From an uncultured virus (IMG/VR IMGVR_UViG_3300009034_000029) (taxonomy: Duplodnaviria; Heunggongvirae; Uroviricota; Caudoviricetes): a stretch of DNA of 20,000 nucleotides. Both the position numbers and the translations under genes were made by a program. Shown here piece after piece: positions 3,834 through 18,187 of the stretch. The stretch lies in IMG/VR virus record IMGVR_UViG_3300009034_000029; one strand, given 5' to 3'. Under the pieces are notes generated by a model. It had not been told where the DNA came from and did no database searches. It saw only the letters and a program-made list of their open reading frames with translations. How positions within the stretch are numbered: the stretch's first letter is position 1; every line of letters starts with the position of its first letter.

Positions 3834-3860
3834 AAAAAATAGGGGAGAAAAATCCCCTAT
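3834..3860 (-). terminator. Hairpin + T-run terminator/attenuator after the capsid-decoration genes
   Basis: Minus strand reads ATAGGGGA-TTTTTC-TCCCCTAT followed by TTTTT, overlapping the stop of 3857..4822. Confidence 0.7.
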
Positions 3861-4822: not shown

Positions 4823-4858
4823 TGTTTTATCACTCCTGAATAAAATAGGTGATGGCTA

Positions 4859-5842
4859 TTAAGCCACCACATTGTCGATTTTAGATATTCTATAAGAGGT
4901 TGATACCGAATCACTCTCAGGCGTAATTTTGGTATTGTAAAACTGCCTGATTATCCACTCGAATCCAGACCCAGCAACACGCTCTCTCTCAGTAAGAGGT
5001 ATGCGTGTGGTCTGTAATTCACCGTGGGTACCTGTTTCGGTTCCCTTGACAAGCAGATATGCAGAGTCTGTAAAGTACCTTGTTGGATAGAATGCTATTC
5101 CAGATGAACTGGCCATGTAGTCACTTAGTCGTTGCTGAACGTTGTTTATCATGTGTAAGCCTCTCAGCTTTGCATGACATTTCACTGGGTAAACCAATGC
5201 TGTTCGTCTCATGTCATCCGTAGAGACATTAGACTCATCTAATATGTTCTCCCAAGCTTCCTCAATATTTCCAACAATATCCACTGCAGCACTATTGCTG
5301 TTCCATTCCTGGCCAGCTGGTACAGTAACTTGTGTAGCTCCTGCACCTGCAGATATGGCATCGAGGATATTCTCATCCTTTTTCTTGGCTAGCGCCTCTG
5401 AAGCACGTCGTAGTGAAGTTTGGACTTGTAAATTCCCGGTCCCTCGAAGTACAGCCTGATCAGATATGAATAATCTAACCATAGCAGCTTCAAGTGTCAA
5501 TCGGAACGGAGTCCATTCAATGCGTTGTCTCATACCAATAGCTGTTTCTCCCATAGGCCAATCTGCCGTGATCTCACTTGGAAAATCATATCTCACATCC
5601 AGGTCACCAAAGGTTACTGGAGGAAATACTTTTGTTCCAACTGAAATGAACGCAGCAGTTTTATATAGTACTCTCTGCACAACGGCCTTTCGATATGCTA
5701 CATCTGATGTTGCACCACCAGCAGCCATTAAAGACTTCGCATAGCTGTCAATTTCCCCTTTCCAAGCTTTTAGTTGTGCCTCGGAGACATTATACTTCTT
5801 AATAAACTCCGGCTGTTCCGTCAATAAACTATCTACTGACAT
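4859..5842 (-). CDS. Major capsid protein (HK97 fold)
   Basis: 327 aa, follows protease/scaffold and a decoration gene; E-loop-like 'WPMGETA', spine-helix-like 'LRRASEALAKKKDENILDAI'; strong GGAGTGA RBS. Confidence 0.8.
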   Translation of the reverse strand: MSVDSLLTEQPEFIKKYNVSEAQLKAWKGEIDSYAKSLMAAGGATSDVAYRKAVVQRVLYKTAAFISVGTKVFPPVTFGDLDVRYDFPSEITADWPMGETAIGMRQRIEWTPFRLTLEAAMVRLFISDQAVLRGTGNLQVQTSLRRASEALAKKKDENILDAISAGAGATQVTVPAGQEWNSNSAAVDIVGNIEEAWENILDESNVSTDDMRRTALVYPVKCHAKLRGLHMINNVQQRLSDYMASSSGIAFYPTRYFTDSAYLLVKGTETGTHGELQTTRIPLTERERVAGSGFEWIIRQFYNTKITPESDSVSTSYRISKIDNVVA

Positions 5843-5854
5843 TTCATATCACTC

Positions 5855-6289
5855 CTAAGCTCTTCCAAGGACTAATTTGACGTCCATCTTTCCACCGGCA
5901 GATGCACCAACAGCTTCTAATGCAAACCCAATTAGGATCTGCATGTCGGCATTATGGTTTGCTAGAGAATCCTCTCGAATAGTGTGTTTATCGGCGAGTC
6001 CGCCAGACACTACTTTGATTGGATCTCCAGGAACGATGGCAGAATTGGCAGCTGTTACTTTGACTCGTGCAACACCGTCTTGTATCAGTCCACCCCAACC
6101 TTTTATTGCAGCTAATTGTTGGTCTAATATAGCCATCTGATTTATCCCACATGGAATATTCCCAGATGTCCATATCTGCACATTCAGGGCTGTGGCGCTT
6201 GACCACATACAAATATATCCTTCATCATCAAAGTTGGTTTCATCGAAGTATACATTCAGTGGTTCTCCAGGTAGATGTCGTTGTGCCAT
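5855..6289 (-). CDS. Head decoration/cement protein (DUF2190-like)
   Basis: 'QDGVARVKVTAANSAIVPGDPIKVVSGG' and 'IGFALEAVGASAGGKMDVKL' match the beta-clip decoration pattern; located between scaffold and MCP. Confidence 0.7.
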   Translation of the reverse strand: MAQRHLPGEPLNVYFDETNFDDEGYICMWSSATALNVQIWTSGNIPCGINQMAILDQQLAAIKGWGGLIQDGVARVKVTAANSAIVPGDPIKVVSGGLADKHTIREDSLANHNADMQILIGFALEAVGASAGGKMDVKLVLGRA

Positions 6290-6817
6290 TTATATACCAC
6301 CCTCAAATAGTCTCTTCAAGTCAACACCAAAAACATCCGTTGCCGCTTTATCAGATGGATCAAGAGCCGATTGCGAATCAGCTATTCCTGGTGCTTTAAG
6401 GTTCGCAGGGCCTGATACCTCACGAGCCTTCTTCGCCAAGTCAATCATCCGAGTTAGCATACTAATCCGAGCGGCAGCAGGAACATCTTTATATTCCTCC
6501 TCATCGAAAGAAGGATCTAGCTCCTTATATTTCTCATGCAACTCAGTTAGTTTTGCTTTCTCTTCAGCCGCTCGCGCATCAGCTTCTGTCTGTCGCTGAG
6601 CCTGGATGGCCTCGAGATTCTTCTGAAGCTCGTCCACCCGCGAGGTCATGGCGTCAATACCTTCCGTTGTTTTATTCACCATACCTTCTAATTTAGAAGT
6701 ATCTGGCTTTACCACGGGAGGTACACTTGGCGCACTTACTGGAGGAGTTGCTGGAGGCTTTGTAACCTCAGCTCCCTCCACTTGTGTATCCGGTTTAGTT
6801 GTTTCGTCTTCTGTCAT
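6290..6817 (-). CDS. Nested in-frame scaffold protein (internal start M369)
   Basis: GGAGG at 6832-6828, 10 nt upstream of an in-frame ATG at 6817; product is acidic/Pro-rich then coiled coil, like nested scaffolds of lambda C/Nu3 and Mu I/Z. Confidence 0.6.
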   Translation of the reverse strand: MTEDETTKPDTQVEGAEVTKPPATPPVSAPSVPPVVKPDTSKLEGMVNKTTEGIDAMTSRVDELQKNLEAIQAQRQTEADARAAEEKAKLTELHEKYKELDPSFDEEEYKDVPAAARISMLTRMIDLAKKAREVSGPANLKAPGIADSQSALDPSDKAATDVFGVDLKRLFEGGI

Positions 6818-7921
6818 ATGTTGTGCGCCTCCTAAATAGGCGATCTCAGTATGGCTAACTCTACAGTTAGTACACGCAGGGGTCTTAGTTAATGCCCCAC
6901 CAGTAAACTCCATACTCGTGATATCGGGGATTGGTTTGTATCCATTATTCAGATACAATAGCTCACCTGATAATCCCCAATCGGGTTCATTCATAACTCT
7001 CCCTTTCATCTCGTTGTTATATATTCCCCCTCTGACCCACATTTCATCTCCCTTCATGTATGATCTCATGAAGAACCCTATGTTTTTCTCCTTATTATGT
7101 TCGAGGTTTAATGTTGTATCCTCGATTGATTTGTGAGCTAACTTTATCGGTTCCGCTGGATAGTTATTAGTTCTACCCAACATGTCCGTATAGACCCCTG
7201 GTATTAACAGAGGTCCCTCAAATATTACAATGTCTTTTCTTTCAATAAACGTAAACCCACTTAAGGGTACGGTTAATGTAGCCACTTGCATGCTATTCTT
7301 TCCAGTCTGCGGTTTATGTGATGCAGCCCATTTCTTAGCCCTATCCATAGTCCATCCTGCTTGTTTACTAAACCTATAACCCGTAATGACTTTATTATCC
7401 CCACAAGTTGCTCTTATTGCAGCAACTCCCTTAGAGAAGTTAACCCTATGAAAGTCTGTACATTCACCAGATTCCCTAACTCGGTGCCAGATTTCTTTCT
7501 CTTTAGACTCCCAAATAAGCTTAGCTTCCTGAGGCTCTGACAATGCTCCTTCTTCCCATTTAAAGTCTGCATTCCACCCCATCGCTACCTTATTCACGGT
7601 AAGCTTCCCTGTGCCTTTTAACACATAAGTCCCTTTATATGGAGTCTCACCATTCTCTATTGTATACTCACCACTCCGAAGGATATTAATCTTAGCCTTT
7701 TTATCCTTTTTGGCACCTGGTAATCCCGCTGGGATTCCTCCCTCAAAAGCCAACCATCTTTCATGGTGAGGGCCTTTTCTCTTTGCTAATGCATTTTTAG
7801 TATCACATAAAGTCCCACAGTAAACTTCATAACCCTCTAACTTACCATTTTCCTTCTGGAATCTAAAATCCAAATGGGGATCTTCACCCTCAACTTCATG
7901 TAATTGCACTACATACTTCAT
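6290..7921 (-). CDS. Multidomain maturation protein: LigD 3'-phosphoesterase-like domain + unknown module + prohead serine protease + scaffold
   Basis: aa 1-~120 'YVVQLH...HLDFRF...PHHERWLAFEGGIPAG...SGEY' resemble LigD PE; aa ~230-356 carry 'LNLEH' (H275), 'IG', 'GLSGE' (S318) and 'GALTKTPAC' of assemblin-like phage proteases; aa 369-543 are a Pro-rich linker plus coiled coil. Lies between portal and MCP. Confidence 0.75.
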   Translation of the reverse strand: MKYVVQLHEVEGEDPHLDFRFQKENGKLEGYEVYCGTLCDTKNALAKRKGPHHERWLAFEGGIPAGLPGAKKDKKAKINILRSGEYTIENGETPYKGTYVLKGTGKLTVNKVAMGWNADFKWEEGALSEPQEAKLIWESKEKEIWHRVRESGECTDFHRVNFSKGVAAIRATCGDNKVITGYRFSKQAGWTMDRAKKWAASHKPQTGKNSMQVATLTVPLSGFTFIERKDIVIFEGPLLIPGVYTDMLGRTNNYPAEPIKLAHKSIEDTTLNLEHNKEKNIGFFMRSYMKGDEMWVRGGIYNNEMKGRVMNEPDWGLSGELLYLNNGYKPIPDITSMEFTGGALTKTPACTNCRVSHTEIAYLGGAQHMTEDETTKPDTQVEGAEVTKPPATPPVSAPSVPPVVKPDTSKLEGMVNKTTEGIDAMTSRVDELQKNLEAIQAQRQTEADARAAEEKAKLTELHEKYKELDPSFDEEEYKDVPAAARISMLTRMIDLAKKAREVSGPANLKAPGIADSQSALDPSDKAATDVFGVDLKRLFEGGI

Positions 7922-9561
7922 TCTCTCGCACTCCTTTGACCTTGTCTTTGAGTACGCTCATAAGTTGGAAGTTCTGTCCCTGGATCCTGAGTAGCTCTTT
8001 GTCCCCTATCTGCCTGTATCTCTCGTGTAGTCGACGTATGCTTATGTTCCTGAATCTTCTTTGCCCATTCAAGAATCTCTTTCTTCTGATCATCAGTCAA
8101 TGGTTCCTTATTAAACAGCTCTCGTATCTCAGTTGGAGTAAAGTCTCCAGTCTCTATCAATACAGCAGCTATTCTTGCTAACTCAGCTCTATCCTTATCT
8201 AATATCAATTGGTGCTTAATTTCCAACTTTTTCATTAATTCCTGATAACCTTGATAATTCGCCAACCTAAAATGACTCTCGATAAGCTTAATAACTTCCT
8301 TGGAGATGATATCAGCCAACACAGAAGCTCGCATTAACATATAACTATTCGGGAATGTTGCAGCTGCAAATGCCTGACTCTCCCTAGTAGCCATAGCCAC
8401 TTCAGGGTTGAATAGAGAATTATAGATAGATCTATTCAAATTCTCCAACATGGGGTTTGGATCAGTATACTTCATCTTGGGTTCTAAATAACTAGGCACT
8501 ACATTATCTGAAATTACCCAACCCTGTTCGGTTTCCTTCCATCTAATCTTCTTCTCGAAATCATCCAATGCGGTCTGCATATCGGCTAATGCTGCAGTTC
8601 TCCTTTGTGTTGGAGTTCCATCATAAAATTCTGGATTGAATGCTTCGACTTTCAGACTAAATACTGGCCTAGGAACTGCATAATGTCTCCATTTCATATC
8701 ATCCAGTTGCATGTTAAGTTTCCACAGTATTATCTGTCTACATGACTCCAATGGAGAAATTGACCATACACCAAAGGTCCATCTATCCACAATATCAATA
8801 ACTTCACTATTACTCATTAAACTGCAATGGAATATTTTATCTGTAGTAGCCTTATCGGGTTTAAATGTCTGTCTCCCTTCAACGATCTGGGCACCCGTAT
8901 ACTGTTCATTCAACACATATATATTCTTATTCATAATCTCTACATCAAAATGCCCGATCTGAGCTGCATTCTCCACGATAGTCGTCCTTGAAATCGGCCA
9001 AGTCTGCAATCCAGTTATATTCCCATCAATAAGAACTTTCGAGATATGATCACCATGCCGCAACATATCTCTCGCAGCAGTCTCATAAATCAATGGAACA
9101 TCAATTTTCTTCGCGAAGTCTCGTGCTTCCTCAAGGAATTTCTTCTCTGTTTCCTCTTCCTTCTCACCCATCTTTAACCCTAACCCAGCATAAACCCTAC
9201 GAGTCATCATTGAAATTGTATCTATAGCTCCTCTTACCTCAGGATCTACCTGATACATTGTATCATACCCGAAGTGTTTATTCACCGGATAACTAATATT
9301 AAATATAATCCCACGTAGGTTTTCAACGGAATGTAGCAATGGAGGTTCCTTATATGCCGCACCAATATTCACAAACTCCGATAATTTTGATTTCTTACCC
9401 TTTAAACTGGCCTTATACATCTTACTCCATCGATGTTGAATAAACTCCCGATGTTTTGTAACACCATCAATCTCGGGCTCGGGGATTGGAGCAACCAAAA
9501 ATCCCTTAAATGGCTGTTCTTTCTCTGGTTTCGTCCATTTTTCCCAAAACTTCCACTTCAT
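7918..9561 (-). CDS. Portal protein
   Basis: 547 aa between TerL and protease, with ATGA overlaps on both sides; portal-like features 'ARDMLRHGD', 'FGVWSISPLES' and C-terminal 'GDFTPTEIRELFNKEPL'. Confidence 0.8.
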   Translation of the reverse strand: MKWKFWEKWTKPEKEQPFKGFLVAPIPEPEIDGVTKHREFIQHRWSKMYKASLKGKKSKLSEFVNIGAAYKEPPLLHSVENLRGIIFNISYPVNKHFGYDTMYQVDPEVRGAIDTISMMTRRVYAGLGLKMGEKEEETEKKFLEEARDFAKKIDVPLIYETAARDMLRHGDHISKVLIDGNITGLQTWPISRTTIVENAAQIGHFDVEIMNKNIYVLNEQYTGAQIVEGRQTFKPDKATTDKIFHCSLMSNSEVIDIVDRWTFGVWSISPLESCRQIILWKLNMQLDDMKWRHYAVPRPVFSLKVEAFNPEFYDGTPTQRRTAALADMQTALDDFEKKIRWKETEQGWVISDNVVPSYLEPKMKYTDPNPMLENLNRSIYNSLFNPEVAMATRESQAFAAATFPNSYMLMRASVLADIISKEVIKLIESHFRLANYQGYQELMKKLEIKHQLILDKDRAELARIAAVLIETGDFTPTEIRELFNKEPLTDDQKKEILEWAKKIQEHKHTSTTREIQADRGQRATQDPGTELPTYERTQRQGQRSARE

Positions 9562-11060
9562 ATCGTATCAATCCTCCCAACAACAAACATAGGTCTGTAT
9601 ACAATCTCTACTGTATCAAACCCATAATTGACTAATGCTACTGCATCAGCCACATCTTTACTTCCACCCGGAGGATGGTCAACACGTCTTCCGTTAATAA
9701 TCTCCAAACACTCTAATTCCTCGGTTAAAAATGGAAAATCACACACATCAATAGTTCCTCTAACAAACCTCTCTTGGAGTGAATCTTGTTCTGGTAGCTT
9801 TATGATATGATTTTCGACCTGTATACCCTTATTAATCAATTTTTGCTGTAAAATCGGATAGTTCCAAGTATCAAACACAGCCATTTTTACTGGGAATGTC
9901 TCAGTAATATCCATAATAAACTTTAAAACTTCCTCGGGGTTAATACCAAACTTCCTCTCTGGTTTGAATCTCCATATACCATCTATCACCAAAACATCCA
10001 TAGAAAACTTATTACCCGTATTGGGGTCGGTTTTCTTCCAATATTCCCTATGACCCAGAGCTATCCCAAATGCATCTCTCTTGGCTGCAGGGTCTCCACC
10101 CAACACATAAGTATAATCTCCAGGGACTATTCCTTCAGTATTCCCATCTTTTATCCTTTTTAATATATTCTCCCTCAGTGGGTTTATCTTAATCACATCA
10201 GGGTTGGTGTAGTATGGCAATATTGCAGATGTAGGTTCTGCTCCATAATCTCTTAGAGCCTTAGCATAATCTAACCTAAACTCCGTATCGAAGCTTTCCC
10301 TCGTAAGGTTAGGATTGAACTCCCATGTAGCCAATTTATACCCCAACATATGAGAATGTTTTTGTGTGCCATCTACCTTTAATGCAATCGCATCCTTATA
10401 TAAAGTCATTAAAAAGTCATTGGGGTATAAGGGTGAGGAGATAACAATTCGGTAGCCGTCATTTCCGAATGTCTTCGTTGCTCTACCCAACGAGAAATAC
10501 ACTGCCTCACCCGACCGCTTACCAGAGGTGTCTTGGAACCTCGCCAATTCATCGAAGGTTACAATTTTCGCAGTTCTACCCACTATGGATGCACTATTGG
10601 AACCACCAGATCTAATACGCACTCTTTTCGGTAATCTTATAGTATCATATGTTGATTCATACCCGATAAAGTTAAAATAAGGCGACTTTTCAACCTTAGC
10701 ATCAATTTGAGCAAATACAGTATCTCGAGCCTGAGTTTGACTTGTCGCCGTGTTGATAATAAATATCTCAGATCCCTTAGACAATCCCCAATGTGCTGCG
10801 GGATCATCATACTGTTGGAGGCAGAAAGCCTCGTAAGTAGAGAATAAAGCAGCCTCAAATGTCTTGCCGCTCCTCATACCCGCAACCACAACTAGATCTG
10901 TCTTTTTCTCTCTATAAAACCTATCAAACATCTCCTTCTGCATGGGGTATAAAGTTTCTCCCAAGAAATACGGATCCTCTGCAAAGAAAGATGGAGTCTC
11001 AAGTGCTCGCATTTTTTTCAAGGTTTGTTCCTTGTAATCGAGATCCTCCCATCTTAACAT
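9558..11060 (-). CDS. terL: Terminase large subunit
   Basis: Adenine-binding 'LYPMQ', Walker A 'AGMRSGKT', Walker B 'IVTFDE', coupling motif 'ISSP', RNase H-like nuclease motifs 'LGGDPA', 'FDTW' and 'SKDVADAVA'. Confidence 0.93.
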   Translation of the reverse strand: MLRWEDLDYKEQTLKKMRALETPSFFAEDPYFLGETLYPMQKEMFDRFYREKKTDLVVVAGMRSGKTFEAALFSTYEAFCLQQYDDPAAHWGLSKGSEIFIINTATSQTQARDTVFAQIDAKVEKSPYFNFIGYESTYDTIRLPKRVRIRSGGSNSASIVGRTAKIVTFDELARFQDTSGKRSGEAVYFSLGRATKTFGNDGYRIVISSPLYPNDFLMTLYKDAIALKVDGTQKHSHMLGYKLATWEFNPNLTRESFDTEFRLDYAKALRDYGAEPTSAILPYYTNPDVIKINPLRENILKRIKDGNTEGIVPGDYTYVLGGDPAAKRDAFGIALGHREYWKKTDPNTGNKFSMDVLVIDGIWRFKPERKFGINPEEVLKFIMDITETFPVKMAVFDTWNYPILQQKLINKGIQVENHIIKLPEQDSLQERFVRGTIDVCDFPFLTEELECLEIINGRRVDHPPGGSKDVADAVALVNYGFDTVEIVYRPMFVVGRIDTI

Positions 11061-12649
11061 TACATCAGCACTTCCGTTTCAATTTTTGGTTCTTCTATTG
11101 ATTGATCAATCTTATTTTCCTCAACACTCGCAATTATGTAGAATCCTATATCCATATGTTCGATAATCAGATCAGCCGTGAATGATACAAGCTGTGTCTT
11201 TCGTATGCGGATATTTGCCAGATAGGTCTTTGTCATATAACCTACTTCAGACCAAATTATAAGATCCGCAGTGAAAGTCTTTTCTTGTATCTTTAACGTC
11301 CGCATATCTGCAGAATATGTTTCCTCATATACCTTGGCAGTTCTCATATTTGCAGTAAAGTCTTTCTCTATAGTCTTCCTAATTCTTAAATCCGCAAGGA
11401 ACGTTTTTGTTTGAGTCTTACGAATTCTAATATCTGCAGTAAATGTCTTCTCGAACGTTCGCATTGTACGTAAATCAGCAGTGAAGGTTTTCTCAATCGT
11501 CTTACGTGTTCGTAAATCAGCCGTATAAGTTTGTTCTTGTGTTTTCTGTACTCTCAAATCTGCAGTGAATGTTTTATCATACAACTGCATAATCTTGACA
11601 TCGGCATTAAATGTCTTATCCAATGTCTTTCTTATACGTAGATCTGCAAAGTATGTTTTCTCAACTATACCACTAATCTTAACATCCGCTGTAAAGGTCT
11701 TTTCTTGCGTTTTTCTCGTTCGGAGGTCAGCAGTGAACGTTTTGGTATATGGCTGCATTATCTTAATGTCAGCCAAAAATGTCTTAGTCTGAGTTTTCCG
11801 CGTTCTTAAATCAGCCGTAAAAGTTTTCTCAGTTGTCTTACGAATCCTCAAATCTGCAGTGAAGGTCTTCTCATAACCCTTCATTGTACGAAGATCTGCA
11901 GTAAATGTCACAGTCTGAGTCTTTCTTATTCGTAGGTCAGCCAGAAATGTCTTTTCTTGTTCCTTTAAAGTCCTCATATCAGCCGTAAATGTCTTTGTAT
12001 ACGACTGCATGATTTTTACATCAGCAGTAAAGGTCTTAGTCTCAGTCTTTCGAGTCCTTAAATCTGCAGTAAATGTTTCTGTGAATGTTTTTCTCGTACG
12101 TAAGTCTGCAGTGAAAGTTTTAGTCTGCGTCTTCCTAATTCTTAAATCAGCCGTGAATGTCTTCTCATACGTTGTATATCCAGCAGTATAATATACCGTA
12201 ACGGTACATGAATCCTGCCGATAATTGCTTGCTGCCTTACCAGAAATAACTGGAGTTACACGAATCCTGAAACTTGTCGATTTGATATGAGTGGCAGTCC
12301 ATGTTCCGCCCCACAGATTGGTTGGACTACCAACAGTTGCATCTGTCGATGCTGCACAATTAGCTAAAACTCCCTGTGCTGCAGTATTCAAAGCACGCCA
12401 TGTTGATGTACTGTCATACAACTCAACAGTGAACATATCGTTAGAGTCATCACAACCACCATGTATTGTCACTTCAATACCATCGATTGTCCCGGCCACA
12501 TTAACAAAGGCAAAACTAAACTCACCAGATACCGCTGTACCGGAAGTTGTGCTCATACATGCATCATCACCAGCACCAGTGAAATTGCTTTCATTTGTCC
12601 AGGCGCCGGCAGCTTCTAATGTATTAGCATTTTTTGCTTCACTCGCCAT
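11060..12649 (-). CDS. Putative virion fibre/spike protein: N-terminal beta domain + ~24 tandem 14-aa repeats
   Basis: N-terminal ~160 aa Thr/Gly/Ser-rich beta domain, then repeats with consensus KTFTADLRxRKTxE; its stop overlaps the TerL start (TAATG). Confidence 0.6.
   Translation of the reverse strand: MASEAKNANTLEAAGAWTNESNFTGAGDDACMSTTSGTAVSGEFSFAFVNVAGTIDGIEVTIHGGCDDSNDMFTVELYDSTSTWRALNTAAQGVLANCAASTDATVGSPTNLWGGTWTATHIKSTSFRIRVTPVISGKAASNYRQDSCTVTVYYTAGYTTYEKTFTADLRIRKTQTKTFTADLRTRKTFTETFTADLRTRKTETKTFTADVKIMQSYTKTFTADMRTLKEQEKTFLADLRIRKTQTVTFTADLRTMKGYEKTFTADLRIRKTTEKTFTADLRTRKTQTKTFLADIKIMQPYTKTFTADLRTRKTQEKTFTADVKISGIVEKTYFADLRIRKTLDKTFNADVKIMQLYDKTFTADLRVQKTQEQTYTADLRTRKTIEKTFTADLRTMRTFEKTFTADIRIRKTQTKTFLADLRIRKTIEKDFTANMRTAKVYEETYSADMRTLKIQEKTFTADLIIWSEVGYMTKTYLANIRIRKTQLVSFTADLIIEHMDIGFYIIASVEENKIDQSIEEPKIETEVLM
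11160..12163 (-). repeat. Coding tandem repeat, 42-bp / 14-aa unit, ~24 copies
   Basis: Counted 24 units of (K/E/V/Q)T(F/Y)xAD(L/V/I/M)(R/K)xxKTxx in the translation; the DNA shows a recurring 'tc(a/t)gc(a/c)gt(a/g)aa' every 42 bp with many synonymous differences. Confidence 0.92.
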
Positions 12650-14893: not shown

Positions 14894-14928
14894 AAAGAAT
14901 TATTCTTTTGCGTGTATATAAAGCTTCG
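14894..14928 (-). promoter_or_regulatory. Archaeal-type promoter of the morphogenesis operon with a palindromic operator
   Basis: Minus-strand TTTATATA at 14922-14915, about 40 nt upstream of the ATG at 14875; perfect palindrome AAAGAAT-T-ATTCTTT at 14894-14908 between the TATA box and the expected start site. Confidence 0.6.
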
Positions 14929-15059
14929 TATAGGGCTCACAGCATTATATTATATCCTGTTTTGGAGTTAGCAAAAAGAAACTTGTGTTAGCAACACAAT
15001 GTTTAGAAACAGGGGTAATTTGTTTAAGTCAGGTGTTTAGCGTTTTTGCTAAAAGAAAC

Positions 15060-15720
15060 ATTTGCAATTTATAATGTAATGTTAATTAAATAGATAATTA
15101 TTAAATTAAATAAATAAAATATTATTGTATATAAAATTTTATTATAAAATTAGATGATAGGTTATATATATAATCAAGATGTTATATAATTAAAAGTTTG
15201 TATATAAAAATAAATAAGAGGTTAAATATATATGAAAAATGTTGAAAAGATAGATAAACATCTATTTAATTCGAAATTGATTGATATAGTATTAAAAATT
15301 GTTATAGAAATAGTAAAATGTAAAAATAATAAAGAAAAGATTTATATATATACGGAATTGTTTTATTATCAATGGAATAAGTTAATTAAATAGATAGATA
15401 GTTAATTAATCAATTAAACTATTATTTATATATAGACTATTTGATATAATCAAGTAGTCATATAAATATATAGGAGAAGATCTATATAAAGCATAAAGTA
15501 GCTAATCAAATACGAAGATTGTTGAATAAGCAAGAGAACAGTTATATAATCAAGCATAAGCTTAAAACTATAAAGCTAAACAAAGATAAATAGATAAACG
15601 CTTATTTAACTAGCAAGAAGTTTGAATAAGGAAATGATCTGTTGAATAAATAGACAGATCATTATACTTTATATTGACTATTTATAAATATAGATAGTCA
15701 TTGATACATTCAAGGAGATG
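15060..15720. other. Extremely AT-rich divergent control region (candidate origin/terminus) with direct and inverted repeats
   Basis: Abrupt drop in GC; GTTAATTAAATAGATA at 15081 and 15381; recurring TATAATCAAG, AAATAGA and TTGAATAA; several hairpins; coding strand switches here. Confidence 0.6.
15232..15393 (+). CDS. Small hypothetical protein, 53 aa (MKNVEKIDKHLFNSKLIDIVLKIVIEIVKCKNNKEKIYIYTELFYYQWNKLIK)
   Basis: Below the ORF-track cutoff; GAGGT RBS-like sequence and TATA-like elements upstream, hairpin just after the stop. Confidence 0.45.
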   Translation: MKNVEKIDKHLFNSKLIDIVLKIVIEIVKCKNNKEKIYIYTELFYYQWNKLIK

Positions 15721-15725
15721 ATTGA

Positions 15726-15989
15726 ATGAATAAGCAAAAGCTTAAAAGACCAACAATAGCTCTATTAGTTAAAGAAGGATCTGATTCAAAGAAGAAATCA
15801 GGTAAAATTTCAATGAAACAGTTAAACAGTCTATTAAACAAGTATAAAGTTATATCAGTAAGTGATCTTGCAAACAAATGTAAAGTTGTTCACCAATGGA
15901 GTTACAAGTATTTACAGAAACTTGTACAATCAAAAGTACTAGTGAAAAAATACATGAATGGTAGAACATATTACTTCAGATCTAAATAA
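15726..15989 (+). CDS. Small basic winged-HTH protein (paralogue 1)
   Basis: AAGGAG RBS; 'ISVSDLANKCKV...YKYLQKLVQSKVLVKKYMNGRTYY' helix-turn-helix plus wing; N-terminal RPTI motif. Confidence 0.75.
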   Translation: MNKQKLKRPTIALLVKEGSDSKKKSGKISMKQLNSLLNKYKVISVSDLANKCKVVHQWSYKYLQKLVQSKVLVKKYMNGRTYYFRSK

Positions 15990-15992
15990 ATA

Positions 15993-16032
15993 GATAGTTG
16001 ATAGAACAATCAACTATTTCCCTCTTCTTTTT
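15993..16032 (+). terminator. Hairpin + pyrimidine/T-run terminator
   Basis: ATAGTTGAT-AGAACA-ATCAACTAT followed by TTCCCTCTTCTTTTT just after the stop at 15989. Confidence 0.65.
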
Positions 16033-17914: not shown

Positions 17915-18187
17915 ATGAGCAAGAAATCTAAACAAGTAGTACGACCAACGATTGAAGACTTAGAGAACGCGCCCGAAGGTCGAGGACGAAGTACGATCAA
18001 CATGGACAAACTCCTCGAGCTAATGCGTCGAACAAACAAAGCGTACAGTCTCAAAGAAATACTAACGGAACTAGGAACTACATCACATAACTACGTACGC
18101 AAGTTGCTAGACAACCTTAAAGACAAAGGTGAAGTCAACAAACGGTTCCATGGGGGAAAGTGCTGGTATTATGTCACGCCGACATAA
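17915..18187 (+). CDS. Small basic winged-HTH protein (paralogue 3)
   Basis: AGGAGGT RBS; RPTI motif, 'YSLKEILTELGTTSHNYVRKLLDNLKDKGEVNKRFHGGKCWYYV' is a clear HTH plus wing; T-rich tract after the stop. Confidence 0.8.
   Translation: MSKKSKQVVRPTIEDLENAPEGRGRSTINMDKLLELMRRTNKAYSLKEILTELGTTSHNYVRKLLDNLKDKGEVNKRFHGGKCWYYVTPT

Follow-up and report, generated by a model that had tools for sequence, protein, structure and literature searches.

The 20,000-nucleotide stretch analysed here (the window) comes from the uncultured virus IMGVR_UViG_3300009034_000029 of IMG/VR (Duplodnaviria; Heunggongvirae; Uroviricota; Caudoviricetes), and its minus strand carries a 543-residue open reading frame (ORF; 6290..7921) whose product very probably joins, in a single polypeptide, a domain of the LigD 3′-phosphoesterase (PE) superfamily to a prohead protease and a scaffold. 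From the N-terminus, the protein reads as a PE-superfamily domain (residues 1–125; 7547..7921), located by profile and ESM Atlas model matches; a small module (residues 137–205; 7307..7513) resembling sequences of L008 and L019, two of the related loci described below under L-numbers; an HK97/T4-type (assemblin-like) prohead serine protease domain (residues 206–365; 6827..7306); a Pro/Thr-rich linker (residues 366–410; 6692..6826); and a coiled-coil scaffold-like C-terminal region (residues 411–543; 6293..6691), all on the minus strand. The reading we prefer, at a probability of about 0.5, is that an active PE enzyme joined to the protease-scaffold protein is packaged, freed inside the head and used to clean 3′ ends. 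The PE superfamily and protease-linked head cargo are both known already; this protein would combine the two.

For residues 1–122 (7556–7921), LigD_N was the sole Pfam family at E ≤ 1 (E = 0.0034, 17.9 bits), and the top NCBIfam match for the domain was TIGR02777 LigD_PE_dom (E = 2.5e-4). When the single sequence was searched against the PDB, the three best of the nine sequences at E ≤ 10 were PE enzymes, headed by the archaeal CkoPE (3P4H; E = 0.067, residues 3–116 aligned to 5–113 of 118) and followed by two entries of the Pseudomonas aeruginosa LigD PE (PaePE), while a two-row profile found only 3P4H (E = 0.46). A profile of 11 rows (A5), made up of the window domain, its homologue P0002 and nine PE-like segments from related viruses, with no canonical PE included, retrieved four PDB sequences at E ≤ 10, every one of them a PE enzyme: 3P4H (E = 2.6e-9, 4–113 of 118 residues), 3P43 (9.6e-6), 3N9B (0.01) and 2LJ6 (0.011). 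A hidden Markov model (HMM) of the nine relatives alone found the window protein at E = 2.8e-4 over residues 2–110, and neither the reversed protein nor any of 200 shuffles of residues 1–127 reached E ≤ 10. LigD_N was also the top or only weak Pfam match for four of the nine segments themselves (E from 3.8e-4 to 0.011). Finally, the ESM Atlas's own model of the protein superposed on LigD_N clusters with template-modelling (TM) scores of 0.75–0.84 over 115–122 residues. Since the relatives' profile, the single-sequence matches and the Atlas model agree, we take it as established, by sequence and model comparison, that residues 1 to about 125 belong to the PE superfamily; by curated cut-offs the domain is a divergent member and not a canonical one.

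This assignment had first been proposed in a sequence-only reading of the window, and the residues quoted there are indeed present in the translation of 6290–7921. Its identification of the domain as LigD PE-like is borne out by Pfam, NCBIfam, the PDB, the A5 profile and the Atlas model alike. The comparison it called for against Pfam LigD_N and solved PE structures came out divided: the match is significant at the level of profiles, and the single-sequence Pfam score is under the cut-off.

The core of the active site appears to be in place. In HMMER alignments to solved PEs, Q6, H8, H16, D18, R20 and H52 align with Q40, H42, H48, D50, R52 and H84 of PaePE, correspondences that the sequence-only reading had drawn and that hold here, and likewise with Gln7, His9, His15, Asp17, Arg19 and His51 of CkoPE. 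On the minus strand, the codons of the core residues lie at 7898–7900 (H8), 7874–7876 (H16), 7868–7870 (D18), 7862–7864 (R20) and 7766–7768 (H52). According to the available text of Smith et al. (2011, PMC3082917), His9, His15 and Asp17 of CkoPE bind manganese and Arg19 and His51 bind phosphate, and alanine mutants of these five residues convert at most 1.6% of substrate, against more than 90% for the wild type. Judged by these alignments, the core catalytic set of metal ligands and phosphate binders is intact in the window domain. H8, H16, D18, R20, H52 and W56, the last at a position discussed below, are all invariant in P0002, and conservation is highest in the PE domain, with 94% identity to P0002 over residues 1–127 against 80% over residues 128–365. 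That the domain is catalytically active is an evenly balanced proposition.

The closest solved counterparts are the stand-alone archaeal enzymes CkoPE (3P4H, 117 residues) and MbaPE (3P43), which are the best PDB matches of the A5 profile. The window domain equals their minimal size, starts its ‘VVQxH’ strand at residue 2 and has His-His-Asp metal ligands and Arg/His phosphate binders at matching positions; identity to the two is only about 20–25%, and, unlike them, the window domain has Trp for Tyr and is not free-standing, forming instead the N-terminus of a viral capsid protease-scaffold protein. Residues 2–70 of the window protein align with PaePE (3N9B/2LJ6) in the elements Q-x-H, H-x-D-F-R, H...(Y/W) and FEGxIPxG. 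The window protein differs from P. aeruginosa LigD in having no ligase or polymerase domain, and both the N-terminal extension and an equivalent of Glu82 are absent.

The joining of this domain to the protease and scaffold is real. The homologue P0002 comes from a different contig and is colinear with the window protein, with 78% identity over 416 residues. When public contigs were compared over window positions 5800–8300, a 2282-nucleotide contig of run X3, from an independent study, was found to span 6600–8229 and thereby to bridge every domain junction; it has two diverged patches and no indel in the PE-to-protease part. Runs X1 and X2 have public contigs that cover the gene only in fragments. 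Because P0002 is colinear and the independent X3 contig bridges the junctions, an assembly artefact is very unlikely, and the frameshift or misassembly that the sequence-only reading had named as a possible source of error was looked for and not found, P0002 being colinear and the X3 contig free of frame-breaking indels. Relatives of the protein as a whole are few. An exhaustive phmmer search with residues 1–127 against 1.84 billion representatives gave P0002 as the sole true relative, and three further repeat proteins that it matched were rejected as false positives; a set of 5.8 billion proteins yielded only the window protein itself and P0002; and direct searches of IMG/VR, JGI metagenome contigs and GTDB genome contigs found no relative. 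Among GenBank phages, tblastn gave only chance-level matches to the N-terminal part (E 0.6–0.8, in Bordetella phage exonuclease genes) and none to the rest.

The protease was recognized by fold and by conserved residues; for the whole protein, neither Pfam (E ≤ 1) nor PHROGs (E ≤ 0.1) gave any protease family. Over residues 206–365, the Atlas model gave TM scores of 0.76–0.83 to Peptidase_S77, Peptidase_S78 and DUF2213 clusters, with five matches good enough to be named. The candidate catalytic dyad, conserved in relatives, consists of His275 (7097–7099) and Ser318 (6968–6970), both on the minus strand, and a PAC motif (P348-A349-C350) lies C-terminally in the domain. His275 (in an EH/GH context), Ser318 (in G-L/I/F/Q-S) and PAC are all matched in L005 and L014; the His and Ser are also found in L002 and L004, and L019 has the Ser and PAC. 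We take this His/Ser/PAC pattern to be that of HK97-type prohead proteases and, by analogy, His275 and Ser318 to be the catalytic residues. The predicted fold and the conserved residues thus mark residues 206–365 as an HK97/T4-type prohead serine protease, in keeping with the fusion as first proposed.

Between the PE domain and the protease, the small module carries the pattern ‘RVRxxG...GWT..AKKW..H’; across the window protein, L008 and L019 the pattern reads ‘RVRxP...GV...QS..F.K..GWT..AK.W..H’. The L008 polyprotein has the module at its N-terminus (L008:2413-2640, E = 1.4e-5), and in L019 it forms a separate 159-residue gene (L019:6794-7273). The module matches no Pfam family; its AlphaFold2 model has predicted local distance difference test (pLDDT) values of 57–85, and a VIA-align fold search with model residues 1–84 found no clear PDB fold, the best being a BRX domain at Z 5.1.

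Directly after the protease domain, the linker contains an in-frame methionine, Met369 (ATG at 6815–6817), with AGGAGG (6828–6833) 10 nucleotides ahead of it, a spacing that resembles the Shine-Dalgarno sites of most other window genes. P0002 and L019 also have a methionine at this junction; the Shine-Dalgarno-like site of L019 is weaker. Met369 is accordingly a candidate nested start for a 175-residue scaffold protein. The scaffold-like region itself (residues 411–543) has only weak coiled-coil-type Pfam matches, and the protease-scaffold protein of L019 has the same C-terminal motif, DVFGVDLKxxF; among the 140 related loci, only L019 carries a match to DVFGVDLK. A predicted complex of residues 411–543 with the capsid protein scored 0.00, which speaks neither for nor against an interaction.

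The surroundings of the gene agree with a role in head assembly. In the direction of transcription, the order is the terminase large subunit (TerL; 500 residues, 9558..11060, minus strand; phrog_17415, E = 1.9e-16), a portal-like gene (547 residues, 7918..9561, minus strand), the 543-residue ORF, a 144-residue ORF (5855–6289) and the major capsid protein (327 residues, 4859..5842, minus strand; phrog_1650, E = 2.3e-4, and Phage_capsid_4, E = 0.0047). The portal-like gene is named from a weak phrog_12 match (E = 0.012) and from its position between TerL and the protease gene, and the capsid protein has six relatives among the related loci. The 543-residue ORF therefore occupies the usual prohead protease/scaffold slot of tailed viruses. 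Its start ATG overlaps the stop of the portal gene by four nucleotides and is preceded by the Shine-Dalgarno sequence AGGAGTG; most window genes, this one included, have an AGGAG/GAGGTG Shine-Dalgarno site 6–10 nucleotides ahead of the ATG.

Through TerL similarity, 140 related loci were collected (80 viral and 60 genomic; 228 TerL homologues), and PE-like domains were sought in them by phmmer and iterated local HMM searches. Such domains lie directly before the protease at seven of the 140 loci, all seven of them viral contigs (L002, L004, L005, L007, L013, L018 and L031), so that the arrangement, which had been thought singular, turns out to have company. Where TerL identity is at least 38% (n = 8), five loci have a PE-like domain, two are cut within the gene and one is without it. 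The viral loci whose terminases come closest (38–43% identity) often encode a giant polyprotein in the post-portal gene. The 1719-residue polyprotein of L005 (L005:2531-7690) contains a pyrimidine-dimer glycosylase, a radical-SAM domain, an ATP-dependent DNA ligase, a DUF6884 domain (27.1 bits, under the 30-bit cut-off), two PE-like domains and a C-terminal protease; that of L002 (1358 residues; L002:9701-13777) begins with a metallo-beta-lactamase (MBL)-fold hydrolase, followed by a ligase and a PE-like domain, and a further PE-like domain sits in a 203-residue ORF just before a separate protease gene; and in that of L007 (more than 1666 residues) a ligase is accompanied by two PE-like domains. 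A single PE-like domain precedes the protease in each of L004, L013, L018 and L031. The ATP-dependent ligase is above the Pfam cut-off in the post-portal genes of L002, L005, L007 and L008, as are, by their own cut-offs, the glycosylase and radical-SAM domains of L005 and the MBL-fold hydrolase of L002.

These repair polyproteins of L002, L005, L007 and L008 occupy the same post-portal slot as the window gene, and that of L008 shares its small module; they are larger (1358 to more than 1666 residues) and add a ligase, and the window protein is a minimal version of the same design. The His-His-Asp metal triad is kept in seven of the nine PE-like domains of the relatives. By sequence comparison, the window protein is both the smallest version and the sole one with the full catalytic set among the surveyed domains.

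Two further post-portal genes were noted in passing. The protein at L003:3597-4919 also begins with an MBL-fold hydrolase and has a weak ASCH match under the cut-off. In a more distant relative, a 734-residue post-portal protein (L025:3383-5587) contains two glycosyltransferase domains, including one of the ‘GT4-conflict’ family, which shows that enzyme cargo of other kinds can also occupy the slot.

A sequence of events can be envisioned for the window protein. The scaffold part would take the full-length protein into the assembling procapsid, a step that we consider slightly better than an even bet, while the bulk of the scaffold would probably be a product of its own, translated from the nested Met369 start in the manner of lambda C/Nu3. 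The activated protease would then cut the protein and free a PE domain of about 14 kDa inside the head. As a manganese-dependent 3′-end cleaner, the freed domain would strip 3′-phosphates, 3′-ribonucleotides or other 3′-blocking groups from the viral genome, most plausibly when the genome enters the next cell, where this would ready nicked or broken DNA for polymerase and ligase. The glycosylase/AP-lyase-type and ligase domains in the relatives fit such an end-cleaning step between lesion incision and sealing. Delivery of the PE domain with the genome for repair is the more tentative part of the scheme. Terminases leave 3′-OH ends, and the healing of terminase-cut ends, a role put forward in the sequence-only reading, is for that reason unlikely and was rejected.

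A wider reading, which must be regarded as speculative, is that the window protein is the minimal and catalytically complete member of a class so far undescribed, in which sediment tailed viruses tether DNA-repair enzymes to the capsid-maturation protease, which frees a repair kit inside the virion. The kit would consist of the 3′-end cleaner here and of a ligase, pyrimidine-dimer glycosylase, radical-SAM enzyme and MBL nuclease in the relatives, and it would travel with the genome and mend damage arising from long extracellular survival or from host nucleases at entry.

Several observations weigh against an active, packaged and delivered PE enzyme. The single-sequence matches to LigD_N and TIGR02777 are under their cut-offs (17.9 vs. 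31.1 bits and 20.9 vs. 144 bits, respectively), and no cellular PE reached E ≤ 0.001 in the exhaustive phmmer search of residues 1–127 against the 1.84 billion representatives. The fold evidence, which for the PE domain concerns an eight-stranded beta-barrel, rests on the Atlas model, whose mean pLDDT is 0.59 over the whole protein; AlphaFold2 models from two-row alignments were unusable (pLDDT 41.1 for residues 1–127 and 44.4 for 128–365). In the active site, W56 (7754–7756, minus strand) stands at the position of PaePE Tyr88 and CkoPE Tyr55, and G50 at that of Glu82/Glu49, so the Glu82 equivalent is absent; the Trp and the missing Glu had already been seen in the sequence-only reading. Among the nine PE-like domains of relatives, the Arg is kept in four and an equivalent of His52 in none, and the L031 domain is almost fully degenerate; these domains being mostly incomplete, the conserved role beside the protease may not be catalysis. 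In L019, whose head module is the closest relative (capsid protein E = 9e-55), the protease-scaffold protein is without a PE domain, which makes the domain dispensable for assembly. Family searches found no ligase, polymerase or Ku among the proteins of the 20-kb window. Taken across the sequences surveyed, the PE-like domain beside the protease is an old, recurrent and dispensable feature of this virus group.

The substitution at the Tyr position calls for closer attention. The four-residue spacing from H52 to W56 is that of His51 to Tyr55 in CkoPE, and a Trp is also found at the Tyr position in the four PE-like domains of relatives that align there. In the accessible text of Smith et al. (2011, PMC3082917), the Tyr holds the phosphate-bound water, and the Tyr-to-Ala change leaves about 20% of diesterase activity and impairs the phosphomonoesterase step more. 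The change from Tyr to Trp does not exclude activity, because those mutants keep about 20% diesterase; and since the Tyr lost to Trp is the residue that holds the water nucleophile in the phosphomonoesterase step, the diesterase activity can be predicted more safely.

The main rival to an active enzyme is a non-catalytic role: the PE-like domain would be a structural or binding module that this virus group inherited along with the protease, its full catalytic set being an ancestral retention; it might serve as a metal- or DNA-binding anchor or as a regulatory pro-domain of the protease. We regard this as a serious possibility, if the less probable one. The incompleteness of the domains before the protease at the seven loci speaks for it, as do the Trp and the missing Glu82 equivalent in the window domain and the lack of a ligase partner in the window. 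It must, however, accommodate the fact that the window protein, alone among those surveyed, keeps all five residues whose alanine mutants nearly abolish PE activity, as well as the higher conservation of the PE domain than of the rest of the protein; and the metal triad in seven of nine relatives argues for selection on metal binding at least.

It is rather unlikely that the PE domain is active without being capsid cargo, that is, fused merely for late co-expression, acting in the cytoplasm on replicating or pre-packaging viral DNA, whether still attached to the protein or already cut from it, and disappearing with the scaffold fragments when the head matures. Nothing here demonstrates retention of the domain in heads, and L002 encodes its repair polyprotein and its protease in two genes, so covalent linkage to the protease is not obligatory for the repair set. 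HK97-type proteases, however, act inside the procapsid; the scaffold segment and the position of the gene between portal and capsid tie the full-length protein to the procapsid; and a folded 14-kDa domain would be less likely than scaffold peptides to exit through capsid pores. The remaining explanation, an artefactual join of two genes in assembly or sequencing or a chance resemblance to PE, can appeal to single-sequence scores that all lie under curated cut-offs and to the fragmentary X1 and X2 contigs, but it is largely refuted, and very improbable, given a continuous reading frame with a good Shine-Dalgarno site only at Met1, the same domain order over 416 residues in P0002 from another contig, the X3 contig that joins PE, module, protease and scaffold, and the profile match to solved PEs with its shuffled controls.

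The preferred reading, of a repair enzyme packaged by way of the protease-scaffold protein, has partial precedents. In lambda C/Nu3 and Mu I/Z, protease and scaffold genes are nested, and in T4 the head cargo (internal proteins, Alt) is trimmed by gp21. As in lambda and Mu, protease and scaffold share a reading frame in the window gene, whose internal start is a candidate from the sequence; the likeness to T4 is that of cargo tethered to the assembly machinery and freed by the head protease, as is proposed here. To our knowledge, none of these systems has a DNA-repair domain on the protease. A few proteins, among them anti-restriction proteins, ADP-ribosyltransferases and RNA polymerases, are known to travel in tailed-virus heads and to leave them together with the DNA, and in the literature searched we found no DNA-repair enzyme described as ejected head cargo. 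Nor, in a search whose coverage left most subscription journals outside, did we find a link of LigD PE to phage capsids or prohead proteases, or a polyprotein of prohead protease and DNA ligase.

The nearest published concept is that of the phage polyvalent proteins with an assemblin-like peptidase, for which packaging into the head and processing by the peptidase have been proposed (Iyer et al. 2017, PMC5512222, in the part of the text available). As described there, these proteins, like the window protein, combine enzymatic domains and a capsid-maturation-type peptidase in one polypeptide of viruses with terminase and portal; they have several effector domains and an always C-terminal peptidase, whereas the window protein has one effector domain and places a linker and scaffold after the peptidase. 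By that description, the polyproteins of L005 and L007 fit the definition better than the window protein does. The word ‘LigD’ is absent from the available text of that paper, and the phosphoesterases in its passages are 2H and polymerase/nucleotidyltransferase-associated phosphoesterase domains, none of them LigD PE.

The accessible discussion of Smith et al. (2011, PMC3082917) describes the role of the PE superfamily outside bacterial non-homologous end joining as unknown. If the window domain is active and packaged, it would supply a second biological context for the superfamily and a compact, 125-residue natural variant with Trp for Tyr for mechanistic work. Viruses of slow, damaging environments such as sediments would then bring their own means of restoring ligatable or extendable 3′ ends, which would change thinking on genome integrity and virion longevity. 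The recurrence of the theme in related viruses makes the window case less singular.

As for habitat and host, the window sequence is present in sediment metagenomes, with no RNA run among the listed sequencing runs that carry it. TerL relatives at no more than 33% identity are found in bacterial metagenome-assembled genomes (MAGs) of Chloroflexia, Methyloceanibacter, Armatimonadota, Omnitrophota and Planctomycetia and also in MAGs of Woese-, Pace- and Aenigmatarchaeota (DPANN), and only one of the named relatives comes from a Pacearchaeota bin; the earlier description of an archaeal virus is not sustained by this mixture. Sigma-70-like sites are not enriched in the window (56 vs. 60.7 expected). 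Three TerL relatives of 846–868 residues (P0014, P0034 and P0120) contain intein and LAGLIDADG domains (PF14890, PF14528).

Elsewhere in the window, a 529-residue ORF directly upstream of the terminase (11060–12649) has weak matches only, to a bifunctional-nuclease domain (E = 9.5e-6, just under the cut-off) and to an ArnR1-like winged helix. In the rightward block, a 90-residue ORF (17915–18187) matches the TBPIP/Hop2 winged helix above the Pfam cut-off (25.6 vs. 22.8 bits) and is probably a small DNA-binding regulator. GC-rich hairpins followed by T-runs stand directly after the capsid gene and the next gene (4849–4870 and 3839–3860, minus strand); they are terminator-like, of bacterial type, and over the whole scan such sites number 17, with 10.9 expected. 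Positions 14900–16000, which separate the leftward structural block from the rightward block, are non-coding with a GC content of 0.22, and the sign of the GC skew flips there; the interval contains several palindromes and AT-rich direct repeats around AAATAGATAG at a spacing of about 300 nucleotides, features that would suit an origin or a divergent control region.

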